A DNA stretch of 64,000 nucleotides from a virus: the IMG/VR virus record IMGVR_UViG_3300045988_150084. One strand, given 5' to 3'. This document shows positions 108 through 29,480 of this stretch, one piece after another. The notes below the pieces were generated by a model. That model was not told where the DNA came from. It saw nothing but the letters and a program-made list of their open reading frames with translations, and searched no databases. Position numbers and translations under genes: made by a program. Position 1 is the first letter of the stretch. Every line of letters starts with the position of its first letter.

Positions 108-563
108 GTGGATGGAGGAGCGTTGGAATCCTATACGCCAGCTGTATTACACACGAAAGATTACGATGGTAGATTTGTTACGCTGGAGGAGGCGGTCAGG
201 ATTTACGAGCTCCATGCTCCAGAAGAAAATGCGTATGCGGACTATGACGAGTTTCTTCCTATCTGCGTTGAAACTCAGTATTTTCCTGATGTAGATATAT
301 CATCTCGTTTCTCGATTTGTCCTGTCGATTACATCATCTATGACGGAAATAATTGGTTCATTCCTCTCAAGGAAAGGAGAGTAAAGAAAGCTAGTAAAGA
401 TGAAGCACTCAGGTGGATTGAGAGTTATGTGAAAGCCGTTAAAAGTTATGATGAACGTGTGAAAGCCCTTCCTGCGCCGACGCTAGAAACAATCTTCTTT
501 GCTAAAGATAAATCATTTTATCCTACAAAAGAAGAACTTGCAGCGATGCCGAAAGCAAATTAA
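108..563 (+). CDS. hypothetical protein (GTG start)
   Basis: 151-aa ORF immediately upstream of the integrase on the same strand. No recognisable motifs. Upstream RBS is weak. Confidence 0.35.
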   Translation: MDGGALESYTPAVLHTKDYDGRFVTLEEAVRIYELHAPEENAYADYDEFLPICVETQYFPDVDISSRFSICPVDYIIYDGNNWFIPLKERRVKKASKDEALRWIESYVKAVKSYDERVKALPAPTLETIFFAKDKSFYPTKEELAAMPKAN

Positions 564-578
564 AAGGAGAGTGGTAAT

Positions 579-1460
579 ATGGAATGGAAGGACTTGTATA
601 AGCGTATCGAGAAAGACCTATACTCTTCGATGAGTGAGAACACAGCCAAAGGCTACCTTACTGACATCAAAATGTTTGAATTTTCAGATAAGCCGTGCCG
701 TGATGCTGTTGAAAGGAAAAGAAAGGAGTGGCAGGACAAGGGGCTGTCTGGTAAGACTATCCAGAGGAGGTTTGCCGCGGTCAGATGGGTTCTCGATATG
801 TACCCTCGCGAGTTCGGTCTTGACGATATTCTTGACATCAAATCAGCTATGAAGCACGTTGACATTAATAACAAAGAGATGGTCTATGCCACGAAAGAAC
901 AGGCAGACAAGGTTATCTCTATGGCCGATGAACGGACGGCTCTCTGTGTAGCAATGATGTTCTACGAGGGGATGCGCCGCGATGAGGTGTACAACAACAG
1001 ATTACAGGACTGGGACATCAAAGGCGAGGACACTCTTAACGGAGGCGTTCCTGCTATCATTATCCCCCGCACAAAGAACGATGAGCCGAGACGTGTACCA
1101 TTAGCGCAGCAGACTATTGATTGTTTCCTCCGATATGTAAACGGTGACAGGGTACGGAACGCCAGACTTATCGAGAACGTCTCCCCAAAGACTGCCACCT
1201 ACACTATCCTTTCCACTTACGGTAGGCTTCGCAGGGAATCTATCCAGCGTGACGTAAAAAAAGCATCCATCACCGCAGGGTTTCCTCAGTTGCATTGCCA
1301 CAGCTATCGCCACGGTCTTGCTACCTTGCTTGCTAAAGCTGGGAGGGATTCTATCTATATCGCTACGATGATGGGACACAAGAACCTTAACACGACTCGC
1401 CGCTATATCCACCTCTCCCCTGCCGACCTCAAGAAAGGTACTATGGATGTACTAAAGTGA
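579..1460 (+). CDS. int: tyrosine-type site-specific integrase/recombinase
   Basis: 293 aa. C-terminal catalytic signature HxxR (HSYRHG) and RRYIHL (catalytic Tyr), with an N-terminal SAM-like domain. Strong RBS AAGGAGAG 7 nt before the ATG. Confidence 0.85.
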   Translation: MEWKDLYKRIEKDLYSSMSENTAKGYLTDIKMFEFSDKPCRDAVERKRKEWQDKGLSGKTIQRRFAAVRWVLDMYPREFGLDDILDIKSAMKHVDINNKEMVYATKEQADKVISMADERTALCVAMMFYEGMRRDEVYNNRLQDWDIKGEDTLNGGVPAIIIPRTKNDEPRRVPLAQQTIDCFLRYVNGDRVRNARLIENVSPKTATYTILSTYGRLRRESIQRDVKKASITAGFPQLHCHSYRHGLATLLAKAGRDSIYIATMMGHKNLNTTRRYIHLSPADLKKGTMDVLK

Positions 1461-1570
1461 GCAAAATCGGCTCGACGAGATGCAAAAATACCTCCGAATA
1501 TGATAGGGGATTTTCACGAAAAAGATACTTGCCACAGGTCTGAGTTTATGATATTCTCAAGTATAAGGAG

Positions 1571-1798
1571 GTGGCTACAATGCCGCGTAAAGTAGACTAT
1601 GATATGAAGCTCTCAAAACTCGCCGATAAGCTCAAGAAGAACGAGGAAGAGTATCAGAAACTGAAAGAGTCCTACGAAAAGACAAAAGAGGAGAAAAACC
1701 GCAAGTTCTATAAGAAGCTCCTAGACTTCATGGAGAAGAACAACATTTCCCCTGATAGTGCTATCGAGATTTTAGAGAAGAATCTGCCTACGACCTAA
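1571..1798 (+). CDS. small charged coiled-coil protein
   Basis: 75 aa, K/E-rich. Strong RBS AAGGAGGTG before the ATG. Followed by a bidirectional terminator. Confidence 0.5.
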   Translation: MATMPRKVDYDMKLSKLADKLKKNEEEYQKLKESYEKTKEEKNRKFYKKLLDFMEKNNISPDSAIEILEKNLPTT

Positions 1799-1878
1799 TC
1801 CGTCATAGGTTGAGAAAAACACCTACCTTCGTTTTCCTGCTGGTTGGTTACTGTTGGACAGATAGACTTTTGGTGAAC

Positions 1879-1913
1879 AAAAAACACCTACTTTTTAAGG
1901 TAGGTGTTTTTCT
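1879..1913. terminator. bidirectional rho-independent terminator
   Basis: Hairpin ACACCTAC(1884-1891)/GTAGGTGT(1900-1907), flanked by an A-run on one side and a T-run on the other. Lies between the convergent + and - genes. Confidence 0.6.
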
Positions 1914-1917
1914 CAGT

Positions 1918-2658
1918 TTATGATGATTTTTCAAGACCGTATGTGCCGTGACCTCTGCGACCATCTACGTCTCGTTTTCTCTTACAGGTAGCGCACAACG
2001 TACAACAAACGTACTTAGAAGCATCTCCCATTGTATCTTTTATGTACTCTGGGATAAGGCATTTCGTGACAGGCTTCAACACTTTGTACCCCTGCTCCAA
2101 TTTCACCTCAGAACCAAACTGAGCATTTTGGGCGCGCTCGAACGGATAGAGTGCGTAGTTAATGCCTTTATCGGCTTCTTTGCGACTCTCAGGAGGCAAT
2201 AGGTCTACGAACAGGACTTTCAATGCTTCTCGAACAGCAAAACGCTTATCAAGCTCATCACAAAGTTCACCGTAAAGTGCGCTGTGGCGTCCCCTGCTCG
2301 TCTCTGACAGCTCTGTAATCTTGTCCGCGATAAATTCTATGCGTTCCTCATCTGCGACGTTCTCAAGGCGCTTACAGATACTATTCCGCGCCGATGCACA
2401 TGCCTGTGGTGACATTCCTAGCTCGCTGGCCATGCTCTCTAAGGTATTCCCCGCTCCAACCATGAGGAGAATCTTCCGTTGCGTATCGGAGAGACAACCA
2501 AGAACAACCTGTAAACTATCAAGGACACGTTCACGCCGCTCAGTTTCTTCCAAAACGACATCAGGAGACAGACCATATTTTCTCGATACGTCAAAAGCAA
2601 TCTTGTCTGAGTCCAGCCAACCCTCACCGAGAAGGTCTACGGCGTTAGCCAAACTCAT
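1918..2658 (-). CDS. HTH transcriptional regulator with sigma-70 region-4/LuxR-type HTH
   Basis: 246 aa. The segment LSDTQRKILLMVGAGNTLESMASELGMSPQACASARNSICKRL resembles sigma-70 region 4. No region 2 was recognised, so this is probably not a full sigma factor. Confidence 0.45.
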   Translation of the reverse strand: MSLANAVDLLGEGWLDSDKIAFDVSRKYGLSPDVVLEETERRERVLDSLQVVLGCLSDTQRKILLMVGAGNTLESMASELGMSPQACASARNSICKRLENVADEERIEFIADKITELSETSRGRHSALYGELCDELDKRFAVREALKVLFVDLLPPESRKEADKGINYALYPFERAQNAQFGSEVKLEQGYKVLKPVTKCLIPEYIKDTMGDASKYVCCTLCATCKRKRDVDGRRGHGTYGLEKSS

Positions 2659-2900
2659 ACTTGCTCCTTTTTCAACGAATCGGAGGTAAAGTAGCAGCCC
2701 CTTATGAAACCGTTCCCAAGTTTTCTCTTCCCCTTGAATCGATACCTGTCTTTGAAATCTGAGGACTCACTCTTTATGTAGCGTACATCAGCAAAATACC
2801 GCTTGAGATTTTCTTCTGCCGCCTTTCTCTCATCCTCTACAACGACAGAATACCTTTCTACCTCATGCGGCATACGCACTACGAAAAAGTGCAGCCCCAT
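2655..2900 (-). CDS. hypothetical protein
   Basis: 81-aa ORF tightly coupled downstream of nrdG. Confidence 0.35.
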   Translation of the reverse strand: MGLHFFVVRMPHEVERYSVVVEDERKAAEENLKRYFADVRYIKSESSDFKDRYRFKGKRKLGNGFIRGCYFTSDSLKKEQV

Positions 2901-3427
2901 CAGCGAATTTTCACTACGTCCTCATTAATCTCGTTACCGTTGTCATCAAAATCGACGTTCTTATAGCTGCCATCATGGAGATGTTTCCAGATTTTCTGGT
3001 TACGGCTCCCACGGAACGGCAGTCTTTCTTTTTGCTTGCAATCAAACGCGCCGTCAATCACATAGTCAAACGGAGAAAAGACGTTAAGTTTACGCTTTTT
3101 GAACAGTTCATCAATGGTGTGGCCTGTGTAGATTGTAGTCTGTAAACCTTTCGACTTCGCCCACGCCGCAATCTCCTTGACCTCATCCATCTGCATAGAG
3201 CTTTCCCCACCGCTGAACGTGACACCACTCACAGGAGGAACATAGCTCTCAATCTTACCCTCAATCTCTTCTACGGACATCTCTACGCCACCGTCTGTTG
3301 ACCATGTAGAAGGATTCTGACACTCTTTACAATGGATGTCACACCCCTGCGCGAACAGGACGTAATTGATACCCTTCCCATCCGCGAGAGACGTGGCATT
3401 TACGCCAGCAACTTTCAACGAATACAA
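2900..3427 (-). CDS. nrdG: anaerobic ribonucleoside-triphosphate reductase activating protein (radical SAM)
   Basis: 175 aa with the CxxxCxxC radical-SAM motif (CDIHCKEC). Immediately downstream of nrdD. Confidence 0.85.
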   Translation of the reverse strand: MYSLKVAGVNATSLADGKGINYVLFAQGCDIHCKECQNPSTWSTDGGVEMSVEEIEGKIESYVPPVSGVTFSGGESSMQMDEVKEIAAWAKSKGLQTTIYTGHTIDELFKKRKLNVFSPFDYVIDGAFDCKQKERLPFRGSRNQKIWKHLHDGSYKNVDFDDNGNEINEDVVKIR

Positions 3428-3469
3428 AACCTCTTTTCAAATAATTTTCGAGCAAATCAGAGATATACA

Positions 3470-5533
3470 TCACAGATTACGCTTTCTTGAATCAAGTTCA
3501 GAGAGTTTTCCGTCGTTCCACCTATTCACGTCTGCAAGGTAGCCTGTGACGATTGCCACTCTCTGTAAATCAGAACTACCGCACCACGGACACTTCATTT
3601 CGTCTCCATCCCACTTATAATGACACTTATGACAGAAATTCATGGCAAAATTGAACCCCATGTAGCCGATTTCTTTCTTCTCCGCTGCATATTGAAGAAT
3701 GTCCAGAAGACCTTCCTTGTTCCATTTTGGGGACTGTCCAACTTCAAGATAAAAGATAGAACCGCCGAGAGCTAAGAGGTGATACTTTCCTTCAATGTCA
3801 ATCTTCTTCTTTGCGTCTACCCCAGCCCATACAGGAATATGACAGCTATTCGTAAAGAAATCATGGTCTGTGACACCCTTGACAACACCGAAACGCTTCT
3901 TGGTCTTATTCATCAAAGTAAAACAAGCATTTTCAGCTGGAGTGGAGAACACGGCATACGCAACGTGATATTTCTGTGTGGCCTTATCCGTCATAGCTTT
4001 CATGTGCTTGATGATTTCAAGGCCGAGTTCCTGAGATTTCTCCGATTCGCCGTGATGTTTTCCAGTAAGAGCAATCAGACACTCAGCAAGACCAATGTAG
4101 CCTACCGAGAGAGAGCCATTTCTGAAACACTTCTCCATGCTATCGTTCTCGTCTTTGAGGTTTTCATGTCCCATATACCACTTAGACGCAAACGGAAAAT
4201 CTTTAGCCTTGAAGGAACACATGATACCGTACCGCTCGTGAAGTTCCCCGATAGCATCGCTTACTGCTTCGTGAAGAATATCCCAGAACTCGGACAGCGG
4301 GTCGGAAGGATTCTTCTCTTTTGCAAGCAGAGCAAGATAGGGAAGATTCACAGTATCAAAAGCAAGGTTGCCACGCGCTTCTGGGGAACTATCTCCGTTG
4401 ATGTTCGTACCGACGTTCGTGCGACATCCCATTCTGGCGCAATTCATCTTGTCTTTATACATATCGCTGTCAGCCAAGACGAAACGCGGCATGATTCTTA
4501 TTCCTACACAATCTAAGGCAAGCATTGTAAGGTCAAAGTTAGGGTCACCTTCGTAAAGATTGATACCCTTTTTCAGTCTAAAGCAGAGAACAGGGAAGAA
4601 CGGCATTTCTCCATTCCCCATACCATCCATGAACGCTTTCAACGTCATTTCAGAAATCATGCGTCCCCAGAAGGAAGTATCTGTACCGAAATTGATAGAA
4701 GAGAACACATTCTGGCCGCCACTGCGAGCCTTTTGAGTATTTGCATTGTATACGAACGCTTGCATGGCTTGGAAAACAGCATCCCTCGTGCGTTTCATGG
4801 CAAGCTCGTAGACCTTTTCGTAATTTACATATCCGTCACCATAGACTTCCTTGATTTGCTTCACTTGCCGCTTGTATTCTCCCTCTGCATACGGCGCGAG
4901 GTCGGTGTCCCAATGTACATATCCTTCGCCGCCGAAGAAATTACTCTGCATGGACTGGAGGATGATACTAGCCAATGCTCCTGCCGTCGTGATATGCTTC
5001 GGAGGTCTTACATACCCTGTACCATTGTCAAATCCCTCTTTCAGCATTTTATAGAGGGGAGAGAAAAAACAGTTTACACTCATGTGCCTATACGGAAGGT
5101 CGTGAATATAGCAGATACCCTTTCGATGATTTTCCGCATACTTCGGATTCATCTTGAGAAGCTCGGTTTCCTTGAGAACATGTTCAGCAACAAAGTGAGC
5201 CTTAGAAGCCATACTATTCTCACTGTTCGCGTTATCTTTGGACGCTTCGAGAAGTAAACCGTCAATACCCTTCACCATATCCGTTTTCCCAAGACGATAA
5301 TCTGTGCGTTTCTGCCGATAGAGGATATACGCCTTGGCAACGTCAGGATATTTCTCCATCAACTTCTTTTCTACCGCATCGTGAATCTCATCCACGGTTA
5401 CGTCCCTATCGAACGAGATTTCACTAGCGATTTCCTTGCCAACTTCTGCGCTCTTAGCGGCTTTCGCCACCGCGTTTTCAATCTTTTCTCTTTTGAACGG
5501 CTCCTTCCGTCCGTCATGCTTCGTTACTGTCAT
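3470..5533 (-). CDS. nrdD: anaerobic ribonucleoside-triphosphate reductase (class III RNR)
   Basis: ATP-cone N-terminus. C-terminal Zn ribbon CHKCHYKWDGDEMKCPWCG and glycyl-radical motif RVAIVTGY. The start is moved to the internal ATG at 5533 (MTVTK), which has an RBS GGAGGAG. The ORF-track start at 5581 has no RBS. Confidence 0.9.
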   Translation of the reverse strand: MTVTKHDGRKEPFKREKIENAVAKAAKSAEVGKEIASEISFDRDVTVDEIHDAVEKKLMEKYPDVAKAYILYRQKRTDYRLGKTDMVKGIDGLLLEASKDNANSENSMASKAHFVAEHVLKETELLKMNPKYAENHRKGICYIHDLPYRHMSVNCFFSPLYKMLKEGFDNGTGYVRPPKHITTAGALASIILQSMQSNFFGGEGYVHWDTDLAPYAEGEYKRQVKQIKEVYGDGYVNYEKVYELAMKRTRDAVFQAMQAFVYNANTQKARSGGQNVFSSINFGTDTSFWGRMISEMTLKAFMDGMGNGEMPFFPVLCFRLKKGINLYEGDPNFDLTMLALDCVGIRIMPRFVLADSDMYKDKMNCARMGCRTNVGTNINGDSSPEARGNLAFDTVNLPYLALLAKEKNPSDPLSEFWDILHEAVSDAIGELHERYGIMCSFKAKDFPFASKWYMGHENLKDENDSMEKCFRNGSLSVGYIGLAECLIALTGKHHGESEKSQELGLEIIKHMKAMTDKATQKYHVAYAVFSTPAENACFTLMNKTKKRFGVVKGVTDHDFFTNSCHIPVWAGVDAKKKIDIEGKYHLLALGGSIFYLEVGQSPKWNKEGLLDILQYAAEKKEIGYMGFNFAMNFCHKCHYKWDGDEMKCPWCGSSDLQRVAIVTGYLADVNRWNDGKLSELDSRKRNL

Positions 5534-5699
5534 TCTTCTCCTCCAAAACCTTATACATACCTCCCGCTCGATAAGCAACAACTACGTTACCCTCGGCATC
5601 CTTGAACAAGTACACATCGCCACAATCGCACCTAGCATACCCATTCTCCATATACTTATCCCACAGTACATCCCAGCACCTTGCACACTTGACTTTCAT
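5514..5699 (-). CDS. small Zn-ribbon protein
   Basis: 61 aa with a CxxC...CxC pattern. Overlaps the corrected nrdD start by about 20 nt. Confidence 0.35.
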   Translation of the reverse strand: MKVKCARCWDVLWDKYMENGYARCDCGDVYLFKDAEGNVVVAYRAGGMYKVLEEKNDSNEA

Positions 5700-6358
5700 A
5701 CTGCAAAATCCTCTGCAAGCTGACTGAACTTACCACGGAAATTTTTCGTAAGGGAAATCGAATTGCCGAGAACTGACAGATATTTACCATACTTCACAAA
5801 ATCATTGTTATGATAACCCCTGTTGTCCTTCTGGAAACTGTCTCCGATAAGCACCACATGGCAATCATCGTGGCAACGTGTGAAAATGAGCTTCAAGGTT
5901 TCATAGTCGCAGTTTTCGGCTTCATCGATAATCACGCCAGCGTTCTCAAAATTTACGCCCCTGAGATTACTGTCTGTGGTCAAGTGCAAGAGCTTCCCTG
6001 CCCTGAGTGCTTGAATCTCATACGGTGTGAATCCCAGCGTCTCCATAGCGTCGTACACAGGGTTAAACAACGCTTCTGTCTTATCCTCCATAGTCCCAGG
6101 TAAAAATCCGTTCTGCAAGAACCTCTGAGAGACTTTCTGGATATAAATAATCTTGTTGATTACGTCATTCGCCAGAAGGTCAATCATAGCTGCACAGGAA
6201 ACAATCGTCTTGCCAGTACCAGCCGCGGCTTCGATAAAGGTAAACACATTGTCTGTGATACTGCTGAAAGCATCCTTCTGCTCCTGCGTCATGCCTGCAT
6301 AGAACCTATCGCGGTCTTTTCTATTCTTGAGTTCGATATATGGCTTATCGTTCACCAT
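5696..6358 (-). CDS. phoH: PhoH-like ATPase
   Basis: 220 aa with Walker A AAAGTGKT. PhoH-family-like sequence, a family common in phages. Confidence 0.7.
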   Translation of the reverse strand: MVNDKPYIELKNRKDRDRFYAGMTQEQKDAFSSITDNVFTFIEAAAGTGKTIVSCAAMIDLLANDVINKIIYIQKVSQRFLQNGFLPGTMEDKTEALFNPVYDAMETLGFTPYEIQALRAGKLLHLTTDSNLRGVNFENAGVIIDEAENCDYETLKLIFTRCHDDCHVVLIGDSFQKDNRGYHNNDFVKYGKYLSVLGNSISLTKNFRGKFSQLAEDFAV

Positions 6359-6590
6359 ATTTACCCTCTACATACTTCTTCGCAAGACTTACAATAACAT
6401 TGGCAACCATATCCTTGTTCTTCTCCTCTTTTTCAAGTACAAAGCCGACGAGATAGATAGCCGCGCGAATCAAAGCCCCCTCGCCGTGAGCTGCTACATA
6501 ATCTTCATCATCTCCGAACATGACCATAGCATAACCGCTATAACCATGTTTCTTACACTCATCGAGAACCTGACTCTCAAAATCGTCCAT
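6345..6590 (-). CDS. hypothetical protein
   Basis: 81-aa ORF in the co-directional gene string. Confidence 0.35.
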   Translation of the reverse strand: MDDFESQVLDECKKHGYSGYAMVMFGDDEDYVAAHGEGALIRAAIYLVGFVLEKEEKNKDMVANVIVSLAKKYVEGKYGER

Positions 6591-6593
6591 TGA

Positions 6594-7049
6594 CTACCTC
6601 CAAATCTTCACCAAGATACGTTGTCTACCAAAACGAAAGGCTTCTTTCTTTGTGTTCATGTAAATATCTATTCGATTTGTATATCCACCACCGAACCTAT
6701 CTTCGACGGTGTAAATGTGACCGTTTATTTCAACCTTTGTACCGAAGGGAACGCCGTCCATAGCGATTGTCCTGCCAGCTGTTGCTCTCCTGCCGCTTGC
6801 TGTTATGCCGTCACCCTTGCCGCACTCATCGTCCGAAGAGGTATAAGCACTAACATTGGCAACCATCTCTCGATAAGCAGGTTCTTCTACCTTCTGAACA
6901 GACTCAACAACAGGCTCTTTTACAGGTGATATGTATGTATCGTGCCAAACCTTATGAGCCTTTGCCGCATGATGAGGTTTTAGCAGCAGGAACACAACGA
7001 GGACAGCCTTGACCAAACCGAAAAACAGTTTACGACCCAACGACACCAA
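6594..7049 (-). CDS. secreted/membrane-anchored 3D-domain protein (MltA/YocH-like cell-wall binding)
   Basis: N-terminal hydrophobic segment. C-terminal ITASGRRATAGRTIAMDGVPFGTKVEINGHIYTVEDRFGGGYTNRIDIYM matches 3D-domain conserved residues. Confidence 0.6.
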   Translation of the reverse strand: MVSLGRKLFFGLVKAVLVVFLLLKPHHAAKAHKVWHDTYISPVKEPVVESVQKVEEPAYREMVANVSAYTSSDDECGKGDGITASGRRATAGRTIAMDGVPFGTKVEINGHIYTVEDRFGGGYTNRIDIYMNTKKEAFRFGRQRILVKIWR

Positions 7050-7638
7050 ACTCCTCTGCCCACGGAAGAGTGCTGATAAACTGGCAGAACTCTCTCCACT
7101 CAGGAAGTCTATGATTGTGCCGCTGATACCAGATGGTTTTTAACTGAGCGTAGTTCGTGACGATACCAGCGCCGATACAGATACCCTCTGGCATATTTGC
7201 CTTGACCGCGAGGAGATTTTCCTCAGATGGATGTTCTACATACTCCGAAACAATATCCTCAAAAATACCAAGGATAGTAGGATGTACATACTTGTTCGCC
7301 ATCTTTTTATAGTCCAGAGATTTTACCTTGTGCATCGAGGACATACTATTCTTTGTGAACCAATGGTATGTATCGTGCTGTTGCCACCAATACCGAGGAG
7401 CGATGATATCATATCCCACCGTAATCTGTCTGAGGAATTTATCATCCCCATGACCATACGGAGAATTACCCAGCTTGTCACCTCGCTTAATCAGCTTGAC
7501 CTTATCTACGTCCATATCATTCATATCCTTGATTTCTGTGGACATAGGGTAGCCAGCGCGAATAAGCGCTTCTTGAATCCCCCATACGTCAACATTAAGA
7601 ATTTTTATGTGCTCCATGTTTACCTCCTCGAATCGCAA
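7030..7638 (-). CDS. hypothetical protein (possibly a nucleotide-metabolism enzyme)
   Basis: 202 aa, between the 3D-domain protein and dUTPase. Contains RHNHR but lacks the ThyX RHRx7S motif, so it is not called ThyX. Confidence 0.4.
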   Translation of the reverse strand: MRFEEVNMEHIKILNVDVWGIQEALIRAGYPMSTEIKDMNDMDVDKVKLIKRGDKLGNSPYGHGDDKFLRQITVGYDIIAPRYWWQQHDTYHWFTKNSMSSMHKVKSLDYKKMANKYVHPTILGIFEDIVSEYVEHPSEENLLAVKANMPEGICIGAGIVTNYAQLKTIWYQRHNHRLPEWREFCQFISTLPWAEEFGVVGS

Positions 7639-7906
7639 TCAGGTATCTAGCCTTGCCAATCGCCGCGTCATCTGCCTTATAGACAAGATTCATACCTGTC
7701 GAATAATCAAAATCGCAGAACATATCGAAGAGAGGAGCTTCTTTGCTTTCTTCTGGGTAATTCCTTTGCAATTCCACCAGTTGTTTAGCTCTTTTCGTCC
7801 AGTCCGCATCCGAGATGATATTTTCATTGAATTTATAGTAAACAACTGAATGGACAAGCGTTTGAAGCCGTCTTCTCTTGATAAGTTCTACGATTTGTTC
7901 ATTCAT
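7595..7906 (-). CDS. hypothetical protein
   Basis: 103-aa ORF. Confidence 0.35.
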   Translation of the reverse strand: MNEQIVELIKRRRLQTLVHSVVYYKFNENIISDADWTKRAKQLVELQRNYPEESKEAPLFDMFCDFDYSTGMNLVYKADDAAIGKARYLIAIRGGKHGAHKNS

Positions 7907-9103: not shown

Positions 9104-9107
9104 ATAA

Positions 9108-9466: not shown

Positions 9467-9467
9467 A

Positions 9468-9542: not shown

Positions 9543-9544
9543 AT

Positions 9545-9620: not shown

Positions 9621-9625
9621 CATGA

Positions 9626-20961: not shown

Positions 20962-21136
20962 TTTGTTCTTCCTCCATCTTGAACTGAATATTAACCTTTG
21001 GCACATAGCGAGTACCGTGAGAATCAACGGCGTAAATCCTGATTGGAATACCGTGTTTTATACAGTTTTTGCAATAAGCTGTTGCTTCGTTTACTTCGTC
21101 CGTGAGCACTCCAAATTCTTCGTGGATAAACGTCAT
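20939..21136 (-). CDS. small hypothetical protein (contains the protospacer for CRISPR spacer 2)
   Basis: 65-aa ORF. Nucleotides 21054-21093 are the exact reverse complement of array spacer 2. Confidence 0.35.
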   Translation of the reverse strand: MTFIHEEFGVLTDEVNEATAYCKNCIKHGIPIRIYAVDSHGTRYVPKVNIQFKMEEEQNGRKKCS

Positions 21137-21284: not shown

Positions 21285-22061
21285 TTACTTAGAAAGACGC
21301 TTTGCGAGACGTACAGCGAGAGCAGGGTTTGTCTTAGAGAGACTACGCATAAAGTCAGAATCGATAGCTTTTTTTGAAGAGACGATAGGCTTCACATCGA
21401 CGGCATAGACAACGGCATGGTTTCTAGCAGGTTTCCCAATATCCTTCTTAGCTTTTTTGCCGAGTTGCCAGTTGTTTTTAAGAGCAGCGAAAAAGTAGGC
21501 AATAGGATTCTTGACAGAGAGGGAGCTATTGAGAAGGGCGAGCTTTTCTTCAACGTAGTTTACGCCAAGCTCTTTCATCTCCTCGAAGGAGCACGGCTTA
21601 TTGCCAGCCAGCTTGCGTCCGTATTCCAGAACTTTCGTTGCGTAGAGGACGGGGGAAATACCGAGGGCAGCAGCTTTCTGTCCAACGGCGGCATGGTGGC
21701 TAGTCTCAGTCTCCTTCTCAACATCGTTATTATTTGTTTTAACTATTCTAGTTTGTTCTTTGCGATTCGTAGCCATAGGGCATGTCATGGGCTTCTCGAG
21801 GATGCGGACATAGCGGCCAAGCACCATTTTAGGGATTTTGGGAGAGTACATGAGCTTGACGGCAACAAGACCAGCGCGGCGAAGGTCGGTAATGATATGA
21901 CTGATACGCGACATGGATTTACCCATCATCTCTGCAAGGCTTCGATTGTTCGCCCAGCATGAACCTGTTTTTGCGGAAAGATATTCAATTCTCTCGAACA
22001 GCAATACATGTGTGGATGTCATTTTGATACCGTTAATAGTGTCGTTCGGTTTGAACTTCAT
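21285..22061 (-). CDS. putative replication-initiation/replisome-organiser protein (N-terminal winged HTH)
   Basis: 258 aa. N-terminal HTH-like region (SLAEMMGKSMSRISHIITDLRRAGLV). Adjacent to the DnaA-box region and the primase-helicase module. Confidence 0.5.
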   Translation of the reverse strand: MKFKPNDTINGIKMTSTHVLLFERIEYLSAKTGSCWANNRSLAEMMGKSMSRISHIITDLRRAGLVAVKLMYSPKIPKMVLGRYVRILEKPMTCPMATNRKEQTRIVKTNNNDVEKETETSHHAAVGQKAAALGISPVLYATKVLEYGRKLAGNKPCSFEEMKELGVNYVEEKLALLNSSLSVKNPIAYFFAALKNNWQLGKKAKKDIGKPARNHAVVYAVDVKPIVSSKKAIDSDFMRSLSKTNPALAVRLAKRLSK

Positions 22062-22529: not shown

Positions 22530-22572
22530 GTGAGCGTAGATGATTTTTGCTTATCGAGAAGGAGGAATTGCC

Positions 22573-23484
22573 ATGATTTCTATCGACGTAGGATTCGGTA
22601 ACACTAAGGTGTATGACGGCGAAACCTTAAACGTGTTCCCCTCTATCTATTACCGCGCCAAGGCAGCCGAAGCCGTGAACGACCCAAGAGATATGCTCCT
22701 TGAACTTGACGGTGAAAGGTATCATGTTGGTATCACAGCCCTGCATAAAGGTGGGGAGTCACAGATGGAGCGTCACAACCTCCTCCGTCACAAGCTCTTC
22801 ATTCTCTCTGCGATTTGCGCTACAACGAGAGGGGATTTCTCCGATAAGGTTCTTCTTGGTCTTCCGATTAGCGACATGGAGACGATGAAGGAATCTGTTG
22901 AAGGATTGAAAGGCGTATACCACGTTATTTTCAACGGAGAGACGCGAGAAATCAACATCACGGCTATTAAGGTATATCCCCAGTCAGAAGCCGTATACAA
23001 CCTCCTAGAGCGTCAGGACGAGAATATCAGAGACAAGGCAATCGGTATCATCGACGTGGGACAGAAAACAGTTGACCTCGCCTACTACAACTACGGCACG
23101 CTTGATGATGATAGGTGCGGTAGTCTCACAAAACTCGGTTGCAAGTCGGCATACCTTGACATCCAGAAAGCGCTTAATCGTGTCTGCGACATCGATACTG
23201 AGTGGTATCTGGTATCTAAGTTCTTGAACCGCGAAGCAATAGAAGAAGATAAGAATCGTGCGTTTGAGGACATGGCGCGTAAGATTCTGAGCGCAACCAG
23301 TAATCTTGGATGGAACTACCATGAACTCGATGCAGTATACCTTATCGGCGGCGGTAGTTCTTATGTTGAGCCGTTTGTAAAAGAGCATGTAAAGGTTCTT
23401 ACTGGAGAGAGCGAAAAAGTTATTATTCCGTCTAACCCAGTATTCGCGAATGTGAGGAGTTACTACGAGGGGGAATTGAAATGA
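22573..23484 (+). CDS. parM: actin-like ATPase ParM/StbA-family segregation protein
   Basis: Phosphate-1 motif ISIDVGFGNTK and GIIDVGQKTVDL, C-terminal YLIGGGS. Start reassigned to the ATG at 22573, which has RBS AGGAGG. Confidence 0.8.
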   Translation: MISIDVGFGNTKVYDGETLNVFPSIYYRAKAAEAVNDPRDMLLELDGERYHVGITALHKGGESQMERHNLLRHKLFILSAICATTRGDFSDKVLLGLPISDMETMKESVEGLKGVYHVIFNGETREINITAIKVYPQSEAVYNLLERQDENIRDKAIGIIDVGQKTVDLAYYNYGTLDDDRCGSLTKLGCKSAYLDIQKALNRVCDIDTEWYLVSKFLNREAIEEDKNRAFEDMARKILSATSNLGWNYHELDAVYLIGGGSSYVEPFVKEHVKVLTGESEKVIIPSNPVFANVRSYYEGELK

Positions 23485-23894
23485 GCAAGAGAGTCTCAGT
23501 AGTATTTCCTGGGCTTATCGGGGACTATGTGGAAAAACGCATGAACCAGCTCGGTCTTACTCCTAGTCAGTTCCTTCATATCATGGTTATCAGGGACTTA
23601 ATCAGACCGTTGACCATTGAAGAAGCTGGCATCTTGAGCATCGGCGTAGGTCGTATGAAGTCAGGCGGCAGTGCGGAACAGGTTATCGCTGGACTTGCCC
23701 CACTATTCGAGAGAGAAGGTTACTCCAAAAAACAGGAAGAGGAAGAACCTTTAGGAGACGATGACGTAAAGAAAGTGGTTAGCGACATCCTCTCCGAGCC
23801 AATCCCAGAACCGCCAAAGGTAGAAGAGCCAAAACAGACCGTAGAGAAACACCAAGACGAGCCTAAGATGGGGAATATGACAGGCTACATCTGA
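23481..23894 (+). CDS. parR: ParR-like DNA-binding adaptor (putative RHH N-terminus, acidic C-terminus)
   Basis: 137 aa, translationally coupled to parM. N-terminal basic and hydrophobic region. C-terminal E/D-rich tail. Confidence 0.5.
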   Translation: MSKRVSVVFPGLIGDYVEKRMNQLGLTPSQFLHIMVIRDLIRPLTIEEAGILSIGVGRMKSGGSAEQVIAGLAPLFEREGYSKKQEEEEPLGDDDVKKVVSDILSEPIPEPPKVEEPKQTVEKHQDEPKMGNMTGYI

Positions 23895-23912: not shown

Positions 23913-23939
23913 GGGGACTGCGAAAGCAGCCCTCTTTTT
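23913..23939. terminator. bidirectional terminator between convergent parR and the HTH gene
   Basis: GGGACTGC-GAAA-GCAGCCC hairpin with A-run and T-run flanks. Confidence 0.5.
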
Positions 23940-24384
23940 ATAGTTTATTTTTTCTTTTCATCGGATATAAAGCGAATACGGCTTTCTCAAGGTCAGACGC
24001 AAGGTTTTTCTCCGCTGCTTCTTTTTCCAGCCGTAATTTTTCCTCGATTTGTTTCTTCTTATAAGCGGCGTAACCCCTTACGAGATAGTCGCGCCCTTCT
24101 CTTGTGTGAATCCATTTTTCCACATCAGCAGGGAGTGTAACAAGTTGTTCAGAAACACTAGCTTCACCTAACAGCGTATCGACAGGGATATTCATGCCCT
24201 CTGCGGCTTTGATGATGTTTTTGAGATAGACACGGCTACCCTTCATCGCTTGTAGGTATTGTGGTTTCCAGCCAATGCTACGGCAAAACTCGGCGGCAGA
24301 GATTTTATGCTGCTTGGTATATCTCTTAATAGTCTCGAACAGATAATCTCCGCTAATGTGTGTTGACTTACTATTATTTACCAT
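23938..24384 (-). CDS. XRE-family HTH transcriptional regulator
   Basis: HTH region KISAAEFCRSIGWKPQYLQAMKG. Start moved to MVNNSK, which has RBS AAGGAGTG. Confidence 0.6.
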   Translation of the reverse strand: MVNNSKSTHISGDYLFETIKRYTKQHKISAAEFCRSIGWKPQYLQAMKGSRVYLKNIIKAAEGMNIPVDTLLGEASVSEQLVTLPADVEKWIHTREGRDYLVRGYAAYKKKQIEEKLRLEKEAAEKNLASDLEKAVFALYPMKRKNKL

Positions 24385-24614
24385 TCGAACACACTCCTTA
24401 CCAATAAATAATACAATGTGCAATCGCATGTTATCAGTACATATAATTTTTACTTTGTCCTAGTATAAAAAGCAACGAAATTTATTTATTCAAATATGAT
24501 AGTATGCTTTTCTTTCATAACTAGTTAGATAACATCGTAGAGCGTCACAAGACTCTATTTACATTATATTGAATAGCAGGAGAATCCGCAAGACCTAAAT
24601 CATGCTAGTTAATA

Positions 24615-27600
24615 TTAAATAATACTCCTAAATTTGTTGCCAACAACAGACATCCGATAGATTTTATTCGTCTCGATTGGTACATAAACACTATTGAACA
24701 TTACCATATCGTGCTGAGTTCCATCGGGACATTCCAGAGTAAAGAACATCATAGGCTTACCGTTTTTCTGTTTCCAATGTTTGATACGTCGCACAACACC
24801 GAGAACAATACGGACACGTTTGTCTTGCTCATCGGGAGCCTGATATTTACTTGTATCATAATCAGCGAAAATATCTTCAAAGGTCATGCCGAGCACTTCC
24901 AGCTCTCCAGCCTTGTAATCATAGTCTTCGTCGGTATTCTTAACCTCTTTGATTTTCTGTTCGATGTCCCAATACTTAGAGCTGTAATCAAGATACTTCT
25001 TATGAGCTTCTTTCTTCTTCTTCGTACCGTCTTTCGCTGTCTCATAGATAGCCTTATTCTTCTCGATTCGCTCTTTCACGGTAGAAAGCTGTCTGTTCAG
25101 CTTGTCAAGCGTGCCGCTCTGGTATACATCCTGCAAGAGTTCACTCCTGTCACCGAGGAAGTCAAGTGCTCCTGCTTTGATAAGATTTTCTACCTTGTCC
25201 TTTGGGAGTTTCTTATAGCTCTGATAGTCAAGAGGAACAGGAATATCGCCAATGCCAGAGATATAGTTAATAGCCATTCTGATAGTTTTATCGTCAACCA
25301 CTTCCCAATCACAGGTATGTGAACGCGCATCGGGAGGGAGAATCTTGATACCGTGCCGACGAGCGTCATTGACATATACTAGAAGGTCTTCCTGTTTGTC
25401 TCCGTTGTAGGCGTTGAGATAGGCACAAAGGAACTCAGCAGGGTAATGAGCCTTGAGGTATGCCGTCTGATAGCAAGTATAGCCGTAAGCCGCGCTGTGC
25501 GATTTGTTGAACTGATACGCCGCCGCATTGGACAACCATTCTGCCAACTTTTGAGCGACATCTTGACTTACACCACGTTTCTCGCAATCATTCACAAACT
25601 GAGGGACAAGTTTAGCCATCTCCTCTGGAATCTTCCTACCGATAGCACGACGAAACACATCTGCTTGACCAAGGTCATACCCTGCCATAGCCTGTACAAT
25701 CTGCATAGCCTGTTCCTGATAAAGCATGACACCATAGGTATCTTTCAAGCAATCCTCTACCCAAGGATGGATGTATGTAAACGGCTGTCCTTTTCTCCGA
25801 TTCGTAAACTCATCAACCATGCCGCTCTGAATAGTGCTAGGACGATACAATGCCACCAACGGAACAATATCGAACACATTTTGAGGTTTGATGTCTTGAA
25901 TGATTTTCCGCATACCACCAGACTCAATCTGAAAACATCCGAGAACATCATCATGGTTCAGCATATCGAAGGTAGCCGTATCTGTGTCAGGAAGGTTGTC
26001 TACGTCCACAGACGCGCCGTAACGTGCCTCCACCATCTTACAGGTGTTATCTATCACGTCAAGCGTTTTAATGCCCAGAACGTCCTCTTTGAGTAGTCCC
26101 ATGGCTTCGAGGTCGTGATACTCATAGGCACACACATAGTCTTCTCCCTGTTTCTCAATAGCACACCACTCCGTAGGGTCACTAGAAAAAAGCATGACAG
26201 CACTTGCATGACAGCCATAGTTTTGAATAATGCCAACATACTTCATCGCAAGGTCTTTCAAACGCTCATCGGTCTGTTCTTCAATGGTCTTAGGAAGATT
26301 GCGAATCGCAGAAGGTTCATAGCCAAGACTTCTAGCCGCTCTTTGAATTGCCGCACGCTCCCCCATCAGTCCAAAAGTGCGAACGTGATATACCTCGTGA
26401 TACTTGTCTACAAGATATTGGATAGCATCGCCGCGCCTACTGTTGGGAACATCCGTGTCAATATCTGCGCTCGAACTTCTTTTGTCGTGTGCAAACCTTT
26501 CAAAGATAAGCCCGTACTTGATAGGGTCAATGCGAGTAATGTCCATGAGGTAAGCAACAAGACAGCCACCGACACTACCACGTCCGATACCCGTCCTGAT
26601 ACCGAGGTTGTGACATCCTCTTACAAAGTCCTCTGTCATAAGCATGTAGTTCGTATAGTCAATCTTATCGAGAACCTTGATTTCATGGTCAATCTGCGCT
26701 TTGTACTTGGGATATTCTGACTCAGGAACATGACCGACAATCTTCTTTTTGAACCCATCCGCTACTAGCTTGCACATCTGAGAGAGGGGCGTTTCGCCGT
26801 CAGGAACTTCAAAGACAGGATAATGTTTTTCTCCAAAAGGAATCTCTACCTGCTCACACTTGTCCGCTACACGCTCAGTTTCCTCGATTAGCTCATCAGC
26901 AATAGTGCCGTCAAGGTAGCTCAGAGCATCGCGTGCTTGCTGTTCGGAATGGATATAGTAATCGTCAGTCTGATAGTAAGTGCTGTCTTCGTCGATACCG
27001 AGCCATTTCCTATGTGTGTCCGCTTCATCTTTGTTGACATAGTGAGAGTCCTCAGTAACATAAGCAGAGATACCTAAGTCCGTGGCGAGGTCAAGCATGT
27101 TCTGGTTATACTTCTTTTGCTCTTCATCTGTACCGAGCTGCAATTCAACATAAAAATCCTCACCAAAAACATCTTGGAAGGTCTTAGCACGGTCATAGGC
27201 AAGGTCATAGTCCCACTCGTCACCGTTTCGCGGATTGAGAAGACCACCCATGCAAGCAGAGGAAATAATCAGACCTTCTTTATGAGCGATAATATCCTCG
27301 GTAGTGAGCCGCATTGTGTAGAAGAAATTATCAGGTTTATTTCCCTTGTCACCATATCCAATCGTTGCTAATCGGAGAAGATTATGATAGCCTGTCTCGT
27401 TCTTAGCAAGTAAGATAATATGGCAACTAGCCTTTCTGTCTTTGACGTAATAGTTAGGAACCCAGTACCCCTCCATACCAAAGATAAACTTGATAGATGT
27501 ACCGTGCTCCTTGTTGTACTTCTTTGTCTCTTTGTACGCCTCCATAAGACCGCTCGTCGTGCCGTGGTCTGTCAGCGCCCAAGCAGTTTGTCCAAGCTCT

Positions 27601-27683
27601 CCGATTCGAGAAACCATCTCTGGAATTTTAGCAATGGCATCTCTCTTTGAGTAATGACTGTGCCTATGTAACCCTACGAACAT
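24615..27683 (-). CDS. dnaE: DNA polymerase III alpha subunit (DnaE-type, PHP domain)
   Basis: 1022 aa. N-terminal PHP motif GLHRHSHYS...LTDHGT. Pol III alpha core-like sequence throughout. Confidence 0.85.
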   Translation of the reverse strand: MFVGLHRHSHYSKRDAIAKIPEMVSRIGELGQTAWALTDHGTTSGLMEAYKETKKYNKEHGTSIKFIFGMEGYWVPNYYVKDRKASCHIILLAKNETGYHNLLRLATIGYGDKGNKPDNFFYTMRLTTEDIIAHKEGLIISSACMGGLLNPRNGDEWDYDLAYDRAKTFQDVFGEDFYVELQLGTDEEQKKYNQNMLDLATDLGISAYVTEDSHYVNKDEADTHRKWLGIDEDSTYYQTDDYYIHSEQQARDALSYLDGTIADELIEETERVADKCEQVEIPFGEKHYPVFEVPDGETPLSQMCKLVADGFKKKIVGHVPESEYPKYKAQIDHEIKVLDKIDYTNYMLMTEDFVRGCHNLGIRTGIGRGSVGGCLVAYLMDITRIDPIKYGLIFERFAHDKRSSSADIDTDVPNSRRGDAIQYLVDKYHEVYHVRTFGLMGERAAIQRAARSLGYEPSAIRNLPKTIEEQTDERLKDLAMKYVGIIQNYGCHASAVMLFSSDPTEWCAIEKQGEDYVCAYEYHDLEAMGLLKEDVLGIKTLDVIDNTCKMVEARYGASVDVDNLPDTDTATFDMLNHDDVLGCFQIESGGMRKIIQDIKPQNVFDIVPLVALYRPSTIQSGMVDEFTNRRKGQPFTYIHPWVEDCLKDTYGVMLYQEQAMQIVQAMAGYDLGQADVFRRAIGRKIPEEMAKLVPQFVNDCEKRGVSQDVAQKLAEWLSNAAAYQFNKSHSAAYGYTCYQTAYLKAHYPAEFLCAYLNAYNGDKQEDLLVYVNDARRHGIKILPPDARSHTCDWEVVDDKTIRMAINYISGIGDIPVPLDYQSYKKLPKDKVENLIKAGALDFLGDRSELLQDVYQSGTLDKLNRQLSTVKERIEKNKAIYETAKDGTKKKKEAHKKYLDYSSKYWDIEQKIKEVKNTDEDYDYKAGELEVLGMTFEDIFADYDTSKYQAPDEQDKRVRIVLGVVRRIKHWKQKNGKPMMFFTLECPDGTQHDMVMFNSVYVPIETNKIYRMSVVGNKFRSII

Positions 27684-28396
27684 TTCAACCTCTCCTCCGC
27701 AATCTCAAAATACGCATCATTCTGCTCCCAGCCGATATAGTTCCTGTTTGTATTCTTAGCCGCAATAGCCGTTGTTCCACTACCTATAAATGGGTCAAGA
27801 ATTACATCCCCTTCGTTACTGTATGTCTTGATGAAGTATTCACACAATGAAACAGGCTTCTGCGTAGGATGTAGAGTCTTGCTAAAGGAAGGTCGCCATT
27901 GAACTTTTAGAACGTCGCGAGGGAATCTTGTACCAGTAGGGTTTTCACTACGGAAACGTTTCATCGCGTTATAGTTACTACTATTTCTGTCTGTCAGCCC
28001 ACACCGATACGGCTTACCGTGCCCCATAATAGGGTGATAGACAGGCAACTTATCGTAGAACACTAATACATTCTCGTGACACTTCATAGGCATCCGACGA
28101 GCATTTAGAAAACCTGTTGAGTTCGCTTTCTCACAAATCCATTCATATCGGAACATCTTAGGATTGGACATAACTACCGTTGCCGTGAATGGCATCTGAG
28201 TGAAAATGAGAATGGCAGAATTTTTCTTTGTCACCCTCTTAATTTCCTTCCAGAACGCATCCATATCAACAACCGTGTCCCATTTATTTCTTGTCGTGCC
28301 GTAAGGAGGGTCGGTCAACACCATGTCAACTGAATTATCAGGCAGAATCTTCATTCCCTCGATACAGTCACCGTGATAGATAATATTCTTTTCCAT
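27674..28396 (-). CDS. DNA methyltransferase (N6-adenine/N4-cytosine, beta class), no cognate nuclease
   Basis: DPPYG motif IV, then FIGSGTT motif I. Start set at MEKNIIYHGDC. The ORF-track N-terminal 22 aa overlap dnaE. Confidence 0.8.
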   Translation of the reverse strand: MEKNIIYHGDCIEGMKILPDNSVDMVLTDPPYGTTRNKWDTVVDMDAFWKEIKRVTKKNSAILIFTQMPFTATVVMSNPKMFRYEWICEKANSTGFLNARRMPMKCHENVLVFYDKLPVYHPIMGHGKPYRCGLTDRNSSNYNAMKRFRSENPTGTRFPRDVLKVQWRPSFSKTLHPTQKPVSLCEYFIKTYSNEGDVILDPFIGSGTTAIAAKNTNRNYIGWEQNDAYFEIAEERLKCS

Positions 28397-28425
28397 ACAA
28401 AAAAAGAAGGAAGCTCTCGCTCCTC

Positions 28426-28608
28426 TCAGCAGACAACCCCGATAGCAGAGTTGAATCCGCACTTATATCCCCTTGTCGCTGCCTTGAGGGCCTCTTGAGC
28501 CTCGTGCAACGTTTTATAGCGTCCTACATGGTGCTTCTGCCTTACACCGATACCGACACGCCATTTACCTCTTTCCGTATCAAACCAAATCACGCCATCT
28601 TTACGCAA
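28426..28608 (-). CDS. hypothetical small protein
   Basis: 60-aa ORF. Confidence 0.3.
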   Translation of the reverse strand: MRKDGVIWFDTERGKWRVGIGVRQKHHVGRYKTLHEAQEALKAATRGYKCGFNSAIGVVC

Positions 28609-28619
28609 ACAAATCTCTC

Positions 28620-28820
28620 CTAATCATCTTCATGTAGCATCTCATACATACGTCTCCACCTTCTGCCCTGTCTGCAATTCTTCCACGCTCCATCGCGTTT
28701 CCAAGGGTCACCAGTACACTTACCGTTTACCCAATAGATACAGGCAAGACAGAAACACCACTTGTCGCAAGCGTTCTCTATACACCTACGACAGAACCGT
28801 TTCAACGCACAACTAAACAT
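28620..28820 (-). CDS. small Cys-rich protein
   Basis: 66 aa with CALKRFCRRCIENACDKWCFCLACIYWVNGKC. Confidence 0.35.
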   Translation of the reverse strand: MFSCALKRFCRRCIENACDKWCFCLACIYWVNGKCTGDPWKRDGAWKNCRQGRRWRRMYEMLHEDD

Positions 28821-28868
28821 ATCGCATCAACTCGTTTTTAGACCCCCGAAGGGGTACAGTATATTTTG

Positions 28869-29480
28869 TCAAGGAATCATAACTCCACCGATAAGACCAA
28901 TGCCAGCACCGATGAGGAACGATTCAAACGTCTTTTTATGACGCTTTTTAGCTTCGTCCTTCTTCACTTGCTGGACTTCTTTATCTTTCTGCTCGGTGAG
29001 TGTCTTTGTATTCTGTTCCACGGCAATTTGTACTTCACGTTCAACGATGGGAGTCACGTCGAGAGTAGTCTTACTAGACTGTTCCACTTTCAGTTTACCC
29101 TTATCAAACTTCTGCGTCTCGTTGTCAAGAGTATCAAACGCCGTCTCTTTGCCGTTGTAGTTAATTACCACTTGCGGCTTATCGGAGCGAATCTCTACGT
29201 CAGCGTCGTTAGGAGTCTCCTTCTGGACGTACTGAATAACAGATTCTTTCTGCGATTCGACAGGGATTTTTACCTCTTTGACCTCAGTAACAACCTTGGG
29301 AACTTCCACTCGATTAGCACCGTATTTCTTACACGCTTGCCATCCACACATGAAAGAGATAGCAAGGAGAGAAACAATGATGATGCCATAGAGCACCTTA
29401 TCTTTGTTCTTCCAGACAATACCGAGAAAACCAGTAGCCTTATCCTTGATTTCCTGCTTATTCATAGATAACATCTGCAT
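28869..29480 (-). CDS. bitopic membrane protein of the lysis cassette (N- and C-terminal TM segments)
   Basis: Start reassigned to MQMLSMNKQ, which has RBS AAGGAG and overlaps the endolysin stop. TM segments near residues 30-50 and at the C-terminus. Charged central region. Confidence 0.45.
   Translation of the reverse strand: MQMLSMNKQEIKDKATGFLGIVWKNKDKVLYGIIIVSLLAISFMCGWQACKKYGANRVEVPKVVTEVKEVKIPVESQKESVIQYVQKETPNDADVEIRSDKPQVVINYNGKETAFDTLDNETQKFDKGKLKVEQSSKTTLDVTPIVEREVQIAVEQNTKTLTEQKDKEVQQVKKDEAKKRHKKTFESFLIGAGIGLIGGVMIP

Follow-up and report, generated by a model that had tools for sequence, protein, structure and literature searches.

We analysed 64,000 nucleotides of viral DNA (IMG/VR record IMGVR_UViG_3300045988_150084; hereafter the window), which carry near their right end a small CRISPR array whose spacers match the genome around them. 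The original prediction, made from the letters alone, had taken a perfect self-targeting spacer as the mark of a host attacking its resident prophage, and had sought an anti-CRISPR (Acr) gene among small open reading frames (ORFs), chiefly within positions 108–29480. The array lies outside that range, and besides the perfect self-match there is a second self-match, unused in that prediction, by spacer 1 with one mismatch. The array, its targets and the early genes to its right are as follows.

63279–63463, minus strand (sense of the CRISPR RNA, crRNA): mini-CRISPR array of type III-A, without a leader, in which two 40-nt spacers alternate with three identical 35-nt repeats
63279–63313, 63354–63388 and 63429–63463: array repeats, plus-strand sequence GTTTCCGTCCCCTTACGGGGATTTTGTTTTTCAAC
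63314–63353, minus strand: spacer 1, one mismatch to the carrier's own 62-amino-acid (aa) early gene, perfect match to an array-less sibling phage
63389–63428, minus strand: spacer 2, perfect match to the carrier genome, sole spacer of a variant array (L001)
21054–21093, minus strand: protospacer 2, inside a 65-aa ORF (20939–21136, minus strand) between an HTH_36 gene and a Rad52-family gene
63585–63839, plus strand: first ORF of the rightward early block, 84 aa long and chimeric, left over from a gene of 192 aa; no family or PDB match
63842 onwards, plus strand: 62-aa early gene, cut by the window end; it ends at 64030 in contigs identical to the window's last 801 nt
63938–63977, plus strand: protospacer 1, within the 62-aa early gene; a single mismatch (GCG>GTG) changes Ala to Val
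64182–64505, plus strand, outside the window: gene for a ring nuclease of the Crn4b family (107 aa), starting 719 nt past the array

The array and its phage genome

The 26-nt core of the repeat is found in arrays of an uncultured Selenomonas metagenome-assembled genome (MAG), of other Selenomonadaceae MAGs and of metagenome contigs, and the full repeat matches at 35 of 35 positions in uncultured Selenomonas sp. CAKPXP01 and in two metagenome contigs (Ga0256404). Arrays with the identical repeat flank cas1, cas2, cas10 (HD), csm2, csm3, csm4, a RAMP gene in the csm5 position, cas6 and csm6 (CARF and HEPN). Because the identical repeat flanks this complete cas10/csm gene set, the host system is a complete type III-A system. 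The original prediction had reasoned that a host without matching cas genes would need no Acr; bacteria with the identical repeat carry complete III-A loci, Csm6 included. Spacers from identical-repeat arrays match this phage family, so Csm-positive hosts are encountered by it. One host operon (L014; Ga0256404_1010891, 474–12040) has two flanking arrays with the same repeat and near-identical leaders; further host loci are L008/L010 (CAKPXP010000007.1). Host spacers are 35–46 nt long, mostly 36–42, and many include ribosome-binding sites and start codons in sense orientation, a content consistent with selection for mRNA-complementary crRNAs.

We assigned the crRNA sense of the phage array to the minus strand, where the repeat reads GTTGAAAAACAAAATCCCCGTAAGGGGACGGAAAC, because host arrays have degenerate terminal repeats on the cas1 side and a conserved leader on the opposite side. 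In this sense the repeat forms a hairpin, CCCCG-UAA-GGGG, followed by an 8-nt 3′ tail, ACGGAAAC, which would become the 5′ tag of a crRNA. A Cas6-type hairpin with an 8-nt tail is typical of type III-A arrays, and 40-nt spacers fit their range of 35–42 nt; the repeat presumably also resembles the III-A repeats of S. thermophilus and S. epidermidis. A terminator-like hairpin lies directly downstream of the array on the minus strand (63217–63201), and every repeat, when read on the plus strand, is similar to an intrinsic terminator. A promoter consensus scan found no minus-strand promoter-like site upstream of the array, and comparison of the host leader with the phage array flanks returned only noise, with no similarity.

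The array belongs to the phage and not to its host. Contigs of the window phage were recovered from gut metagenomes by exact-protein look-ups, and one of them, k119_101089 (ERZ27229728), is 100.000% identical to window positions 53510–64000 and 1–6108. Because this contig, identical at both ends, bridges them through 3,731 nt of small rightward genes, the phage genome closes circularly at 67,731 bp with the array inside it, and the window makes up 94% of the genome. Two relatives were assembled at 71.6 and 71.7 kb. Despite the 67.7-kb closure, ERZ28569052 scaffold_103, which carries genes identical to those of the window (locus L018 is its 72707–81483), measures 100,552 bp; its excess size could reflect a host junction, a concatemer or a mis-scaffold. 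Scans of the large and small ORFs of the window detected no cas gene and no host gene, the large ORFs scanned being all replication, nucleotide-metabolism, lysis, tail, capsid or packaging genes of a phage. The element is best explained as a phage of human-gut Selenomonadaceae. A host junction was seen in no contig, and the premise of a resident prophage was thus not confirmed. The perfect self-match on which the original prediction was built is therefore genuine (63389–63428 equals 21054–21093 at 40 of 40 positions), but the array is phage-borne, with no host DNA, cas gene or host junction beside it. Since the self-matching spacer is phage-borne, the argument that host self-targeting implies an Acr fails as stated.

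At least five other assemblies contain the same array between the same flanks; in a variant (L001) spacer 2 is the only spacer. The assembly collection lists an identical 516-aa terminase in 136 blocks; among ten relatives encoding it that we examined, the array is confined to the sub-lineage of the window, and array-like repeats sought in these ten were found nowhere outside it. No copy of the repeat was found in IMG/VR. The array-bearing lineage is very young (99–100% identity), so conservation of the array is uninformative on selection. We considered whether a host array had been mis-joined to phage DNA through the 40-nt identities that the array and the phage share, and rejected this chimera as hardly credible: the flanks are identical on both sides in at least six assemblies, which came from different assemblers with k-mer sizes well above 40, their homology to array-less relatives extends to the repeat ends, and the array adjoins neither protospacer. 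A one-spacer array at another locus (L009) was also rejected as a mobile-element array, being a short host array at a his/nitroreductase locus.

Spacer targets and the probable capture locus

Spacer 2 matches 21054–21093 at 40 of 40 positions and spacer 1 matches 63938–63977 at 39 of 40, with zero such matches expected by chance in each case. The 65-aa ORF that contains protospacer 2 is called as a gene in the source annotation; its sense strand equals spacer 2 as written on the plus strand of the window, and a minus-strand crRNA would therefore pair with its mRNA. The same polarity holds for spacer 1, so that minus-strand crRNAs from both spacers would be complementary to their target mRNAs. 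Spacer 2 is also matched at 40 of 40 positions in ERZ28569052 scaffold_103 and ERZ2661970 NODE_6134. Spacer 1 matches the array-less relative ERZ28572823 scaffold_215 (L007/L026) at 40 of 40 positions, against 39 of 40 in the window and in all array-bearing contigs. The mismatch falls at crRNA spacer position 15, where a single change is not expected to protect against type III systems, given their known tolerance of mismatches. Protection of the self targets by anti-tag pairing was considered and rejected, the 3′ flanks of both protospacers matching the anti-tag at one of eight positions. Under the established rules of type III immunity, both protospacers would thus count as non-self targets. 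A regulatory role of the kind reported for Cracr was also sought, and against host cas loci the two spacers gave only matches of 11 nt or less. The best explanation is that both spacers derive from this phage lineage, so that the self-targeting sets phage against phage lineage and not host against prophage.

Virus-borne mini-CRISPR arrays are known from the portogloboviruses SPV1 and SPV2 (Medvedeva et al. 2019, PMC6858448), and those of phages and prophages were surveyed by Faure et al. 2019, as summarised in PMC11656645. These sources describe repeats identical to those of the host, spacers against nearby genes of sibling viruses and a mutated copy of the target in the carrier. The present array resembles them in having one or two spacers, an intergenic position in the viral genome and no cas genes on the element, in repeats identical to those of the host (35 of 35 here), and in lacking a leader, as bacteriophage examples do. 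Both of its spacers match closely related viruses, and spacer 1 targets a gene near the array in a close relative while the carrier is point-mutated there. It differs in that its repeat is of the RNA-targeting type III-A, and in that the carrier is not freed of self-targets, spacer 2 being perfect and spacer 1 having a single mismatch, with no anti-tag protection. It differs further in the ring nuclease gene 0.7 kb away, and in the flush junctions and host spacers on both flanks, which provide circumstantial evidence for a recombination route.

One reading of these matches is that the array is a weapon against sibling phages: phage crRNAs would load the Csm complex of the host and destroy superinfecting relatives. 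The target of spacer 1 adjoins the array and the repeats are host-identical, as in the published pattern (PMC6858448; PMC11656645); moreover, spacer 1 is perfect to the closest array-less relative where the carrier is point-mutated, and the polarity of both spacers is correct for crRNA function. We nonetheless regard this reading as doubtful. Spacer 2 is perfect to the carrier, both protospacer flanks match the anti-tag at only one position in eight, neither promoter nor leader was found, and a ring nuclease encoded on the same phage would weaken the weapon as well. Given the established mismatch tolerance of type III systems, the one mismatch at position 15 would not be expected to shield the carrier.

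The surroundings of the array were compared with those of array-less relatives, and three further features define the locus. The candidate promoter comes from the alignment of ten relatives and is absent from the list of the consensus promoter scan.

63059–63086, plus strand: TTGCAC-16-TATAAC, a candidate promoter for rightward early transcription, conserved in ten of ten relatives
63232–63278, plus strand: left flank, with homology to array-less relatives that extends as far as the first repeat; overlaps the target of host III-A spacer L010_174
63464–63545, plus strand: right flank, homology resuming at the first base past the last repeat, closest to L025; 63516–63545 is the target of host spacer L014_11158

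Just downstream of the candidate promoter the sequences of the ten relatives diverge strongly. The closest array-less relative, ERZ28572823 scaffold_215, is 99% identical upstream and retains both flanks, with ~95 nt of unrelated sequence in the array's place. This ~95-nt noncoding element is conserved in all array-less genomes (L007 2023–2121; equivalents in L022–L030), is the target of a host III-A spacer and is possibly a structured leader RNA. Of 140 host III-A spacers, three match the ~250-nt locus in relatives, one in the left flank, one in the replaced segment and one in the right flank, and all have the same sense; the locus would appear to be an early-transcribed hot spot heavily targeted by host spacers. 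Both array junctions are flush with the repeat ends. Because of these flush junctions, the host spacers that match the flanks and the absence of the host leader, we infer that a host array was most likely the source, and that recombination of its spacers with matching phage protospacers transferred the array. Such an event in the targeted leader would have brought in a repeat–spacer 1–repeat–spacer 2–repeat unit at the cost of ~95 nt. For leaderless phage mini-arrays, recombination with host arrays has been proposed as the origin (PMC6858448; PMC11656645).

This CRISPR-targeted region has undergone a second rearrangement. The 192-aa version of the first early gene is intact in nearly all relatives, whereas in the array-bearing lineage ~620 nt are deleted, leaving the chimeric 84-aa ORF. 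To the left, an ORF-poor 1.4-kb control region (61850–63280) separates the leftward structural and regulatory genes from the rightward early genes and contains repeated motifs of 26 nt (62736 and 62843) and of 20 nt (62304, 62811 and 63251).

The array would sit in the untranslated leader of the rightward early operon, and transcription from the candidate promoter would cross it antisense to the crRNAs. This arrangement bears on whether the array acts at all. It may be a silent recombination scar that yields no crRNA; alternatively, its targets may be silent in lysogeny, or the phage may use Csm-less strains, and in each of these cases no tolerance factor would be needed. The flanks without similarity to the host leader and the lack of a minus-strand promoter-like site upstream fit a scar, as do the conserved rightward promoter candidate and the three same-sense host spacers, which point to plus-strand transcription. 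One variant has lost spacer 1, and the youth of the lineage means that conservation says nothing on selection. In addition, the tyrosine recombinase and ParM-like genes suggest a temperate or plasmid-like lifestyle, and III-A systems are documented to tolerate prophages in a transcription-dependent manner (PMC5754349). In that conditional tolerance (Goldberg et al.; PMC5754349) a perfect match to a temperate-like element is tolerable while the target is untranscribed, which is comparable to the present case, but there the spacer is in a host array and here it is on a phage that is only possibly temperate. Against a silent array stand the terminator-like hairpin just past it on the minus strand, the correct polarity of both spacers for RNA targeting, possible read-through from leftward transcription and the targeting of this phage family by identical-repeat hosts, by which Csm-positive hosts are evidently met. 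We consider that the array, or its targets, being silent is possible, though we lean against it.

Antisense transcription would also allow the array to serve as an RNA decoy. Lying within the plus-strand early leader, it could give a transcript with both protospacers flanked by perfect anti-tags; this RNA would pair with host crRNAs including their 8-nt tags, be read as self and titrate Csm without activating Cas10. RNA anti-CRISPRs that derive from repeats and lie near Acr genes have been described (PMC10651486; bioRxiv 10.1101/2024.10.29.618823). Like the solitary repeat units of Racr (PMC10651486) and like Cracr (bioRxiv 10.1101/2024.10.29.618823), the array places host-type repeats on a phage beside a protein anti-CRISPR candidate. 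Unlike Racr, it is a full repeat-spacer-repeat-spacer-repeat unit with 40-nt spacers and not a solitary repeat, and unlike Cracr, its spacers match phage and not host cas promoters. A decoy is very improbable: the idea is purely inferential, no host array with spacer 1 or 2 was found among the 140 host spacers, the terminator-like repeats on the plus strand would limit both the transcript and downstream expression, and genuine targets would remain.

A Crn4b-family ring nuclease in the same early block

The early block runs from the array through the 84-aa ORF and the 62-aa gene with protospacer 1 to the gene for the 107-aa protein, which begins 182 nt past the end of the window. Contigs L002–L004 have no mismatch to the last 780–801 nt of the window and continue into this gene, L002 containing its first 69 codons.

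Sequence comparison and structure modelling show that the 107-aa protein belongs to the Crn4b family. With phmmer it matches PDB 9r7b (Crn4b) over residues 2–105 at 34% identity (E 2.9e-13), and also 9sma (1.2e-6) and 9qs9 (8.4e-6). Its motifs NLTPH (T7, H9) and VRD (R92) align with Crn4b motifs; across 63 homologues T7, P8 and H9 are invariant and R91 is present in at least 90%. The AF2 model of P0001, a homologue 93% identical to the phage protein, has a pLDDT of 97 and a pTM of 0.84. In a Foldseek search with this model all seven significant matches were Crn4, and 9r7b was matched with TM scores of 0.81/0.76 (E 1e-9). Homologues in array-less relatives of the phage are 74–79% identical, and 22 deposited phage records contain more distant ones, each annotated as hypothetical.

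Chi et al. (Nat Commun 2025, PMC12830947) showed that Crn4 cleaves cyclic oligoadenylates (cOAs) and that type III immunity is relieved by it. The conserved residues are T13, H15 and R112 in Crn4a and H17 and R103 in Crn4b; mutation of the His and Arg abolished activity, and the fold was reported as unrelated to any other structure (PMC12830947). The same authors suggest that phage Crn4b orthologues may act as anti-CRISPRs (Chi et al., PMC12830947). The phage protein is akin to Crn4b (PDB 9R7B) over nearly its full length (34% identity, TM 0.81), with the Thr, His and Arg conserved; it too is small and without the hairpin extension of Crn4a, and it is encoded on a mobile element, as are the phage and plasmid orthologues suggested as anti-CRISPRs (PMC12830947). 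The setting is different, in that characterised Crn4 enzymes go with type III-D systems, and Crn4b with Can2, whereas the host system here is III-A with Csm6. AcrIII-1 (DUF1874) is likewise a viral ring nuclease and so, by analogy, alike in predicted function; its fold is unrelated, and DUF1874 was not detected among the 63 small ORFs scanned.

On sequence and by analogy, the 107-aa protein is the best-supported candidate for a CRISPR-tolerance factor of this phage, and the most probable one. By analogy with characterised Crn4 and with AcrIII-1, it would cleave the cOAs made by Cas10; loss of cOA would leave the CARF–HEPN RNase Csm6 of the host unactivated and so weaken type III-A immunity, be it guided by spacers of the host or by those of the phage array. 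The explanation that we favour, and consider probable, is hence that of a phage with a captured two-spacer III-A mini-array in which a Crn4b-family ring nuclease of the same early block provides the tolerance function. The general idea of the original prediction, an Acr or other tolerance function on the element, thereby gains partial support, though through another gene and for another reason. Its expectation that any Acr here would be novel does not hold for the best candidate, which is of a known ring nuclease type and lies outside the range considered.

Several observations weigh against this explanation. The gene lies outside the window, and its presence in the source genome is deduced from contigs identical to the window end. 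It is a family-wide gene and not specific to the array-bearing lineage; because it also occurs in array-less relatives, it was evidently not acquired to tolerate the array, and four other Crn4b-carrying mobile elements have no array nearby. A ring nuclease would leave RNA cleavage by Csm3 and the HD nuclease of Cas10 active, and the characterised Crn4b cleaved cA3 and cA4 but not cA6 (PMC12830947). As for capture, neither spacer 1 nor spacer 2 occurs among the 140 host spacers, drawn from nine host or metagenome loci, these thus revealed no donor array, and the 3′ end of host spacer L010_174 lies 4–5 nt from the left junction, a shortfall that makes the recombination model circumstantial.

The array and the ring nuclease may also work as a pair. 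In this case the nuclease would quench the cell-wide cOA/Csm6 response while the array redirects Csm against siblings or gives rise to anti-tag decoy RNA; with the collateral cOA/Csm6 response quenched, the phage could therefore tolerate a perfectly self-matching crRNA. We hold this unlikely. If true, it would amount to a paired counter-defence module or to a type III-specific RNA anti-CRISPR mechanism, and we know of no description of either.

Small ORFs, other genes and implications

The small ORFs nominated in the original prediction are present where it placed them. Pfam and PHROGs scans covered 63 small ORFs, namely all of those in the window and those in the bridging 3.7 kb; for PHROGs, 25 of 47 families were listed. 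No Acr-linked family and no DUF1874 was found among the 63, by Pfam or among the PHROGs families listed. PDB sequence searches with 123–563, 1571–1798, 28620–28820, 50124–50561, 63585–63839 and three early ORFs beyond the window gave no match other than that of the 107-aa protein, and 123–563, 1571–1798, 28620–28820 and most ORFs of the 10.5–16 kb region matched no family. The matches that were obtained are these.

28426–28608, minus strand: HNH-endonuclease fragment, 60 aa, matching only the zinc-binding part of phage HNH endonucleases
50124–50561: zinc-ribbon protein, PHROG of unknown function
15248–15835: DUF3310
16074–16586: MmcB-like

The HNH fragment is probably the remnant of a gene adjoining the methyltransferase gene. 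ORF 123–563 (plus strand) encodes 146 aa and lacks 21 N-terminal residues of its 163–167-aa homologues, which form only six protein clusters, all unannotated; its AF2 model, built from only seven sequences, has a pLDDT of 49.

That one of the listed ORFs (108–563, 1571–1798, 28426–28608, 28620–28820, 50124–50561 or those of 10.5–16 kb) is a novel protein Acr has in its favour that most of them have no detectable homologue of known function, and that 123–563 lies in a variable early accessory block, a typical location for anti-defence genes. It is nevertheless improbable. The nominated ORFs have no similarity to known Acr families, DUF1874 or Acr structures in the PDB, and three ORFs have other assignments (28426–28608, 15248–15835 and 16074–16586). 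Guilt by association, the check that had been proposed, gave them no support either, the Pfam and PHROGs scans detecting no helix-turn-helix (HTH) gene of the Acr-associated (Aca) kind adjoining any of them. Moreover, the premise of a host array attacking a prophage is lacking, and the recognised anti-type-III candidate lies elsewhere.

The remaining genes of the window, mostly on the minus strand, include the following.

579–1460, plus strand: tyrosine recombinase
2900–5581: NrdG and NrdD
17782–19749: primase-helicase
20248–21027: Rad52-family recombinase
21285–22061: HTH_36 protein
22540–23484, plus strand: ParM-like actin
24615–27683: DnaE-type polymerase
27674–28462: DNA methyltransferase
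29458–30057: GH25 endolysin
57896–59446: 516-aa putative large terminase, assigned from its position upstream of the portal gene; no family match
elsewhere in the window: a PhoH-like protein gene, and genes for tail, baseplate, tape-measure, tube, portal and SU10-like capsid proteins

The phage may be temperate or plasmid-like. The tyrosine recombinase gene is accompanied by a gene for a ParM/ALP-like actin with a 137-aa partner gene (22540–23894, plus strand) and by a phrog_8 transcriptional regulator gene (23938–24429, minus strand), and maintenance as a plasmid-prophage, rather than integration, may apply. Five phage tRNA genes (Thr-TGT, Tyr-GTA, Gln-TTG, Lys-TTT and Leu-TAA) are clustered at 9108–9712 on the minus strand and are the sole Rfam matches in the window. 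A 57-nt direct repeat lies upstream of two minus-strand genes (60181–60237 and 61784–61840). A megablast search of window positions 1–25000 against deposited phages returned a tRNA match only and thus no deposited relative, and the Rad52-like gene had no relative in IMG/VR.

The array is a new bacteriophage example, of type III-A, of the known class of virus-borne mini-arrays, and the ring nuclease is a new member of a known family. What is unusual in the array is its perfect self-match and the junction evidence of capture: the junctions, together with the host-spacer matches in the flanks, document probable capture at a CRISPR-targeted hot spot. Since phages carry captured arrays themselves, a perfect self-targeting spacer beside phage genes is no proof of a host's attack on its prophage. 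The self-match raises the testable question of how type III self-targeting is tolerated. Finally, the ring nuclease places a member of the Crn4 family in a widespread human-gut phage family and supports the proposal that Crn4b proteins act as viral anti-CRISPRs, for which gut Selenomonadaceae with a complete III-A system and Csm6 offer, with this phage, a natural phage–host pair as a test case.

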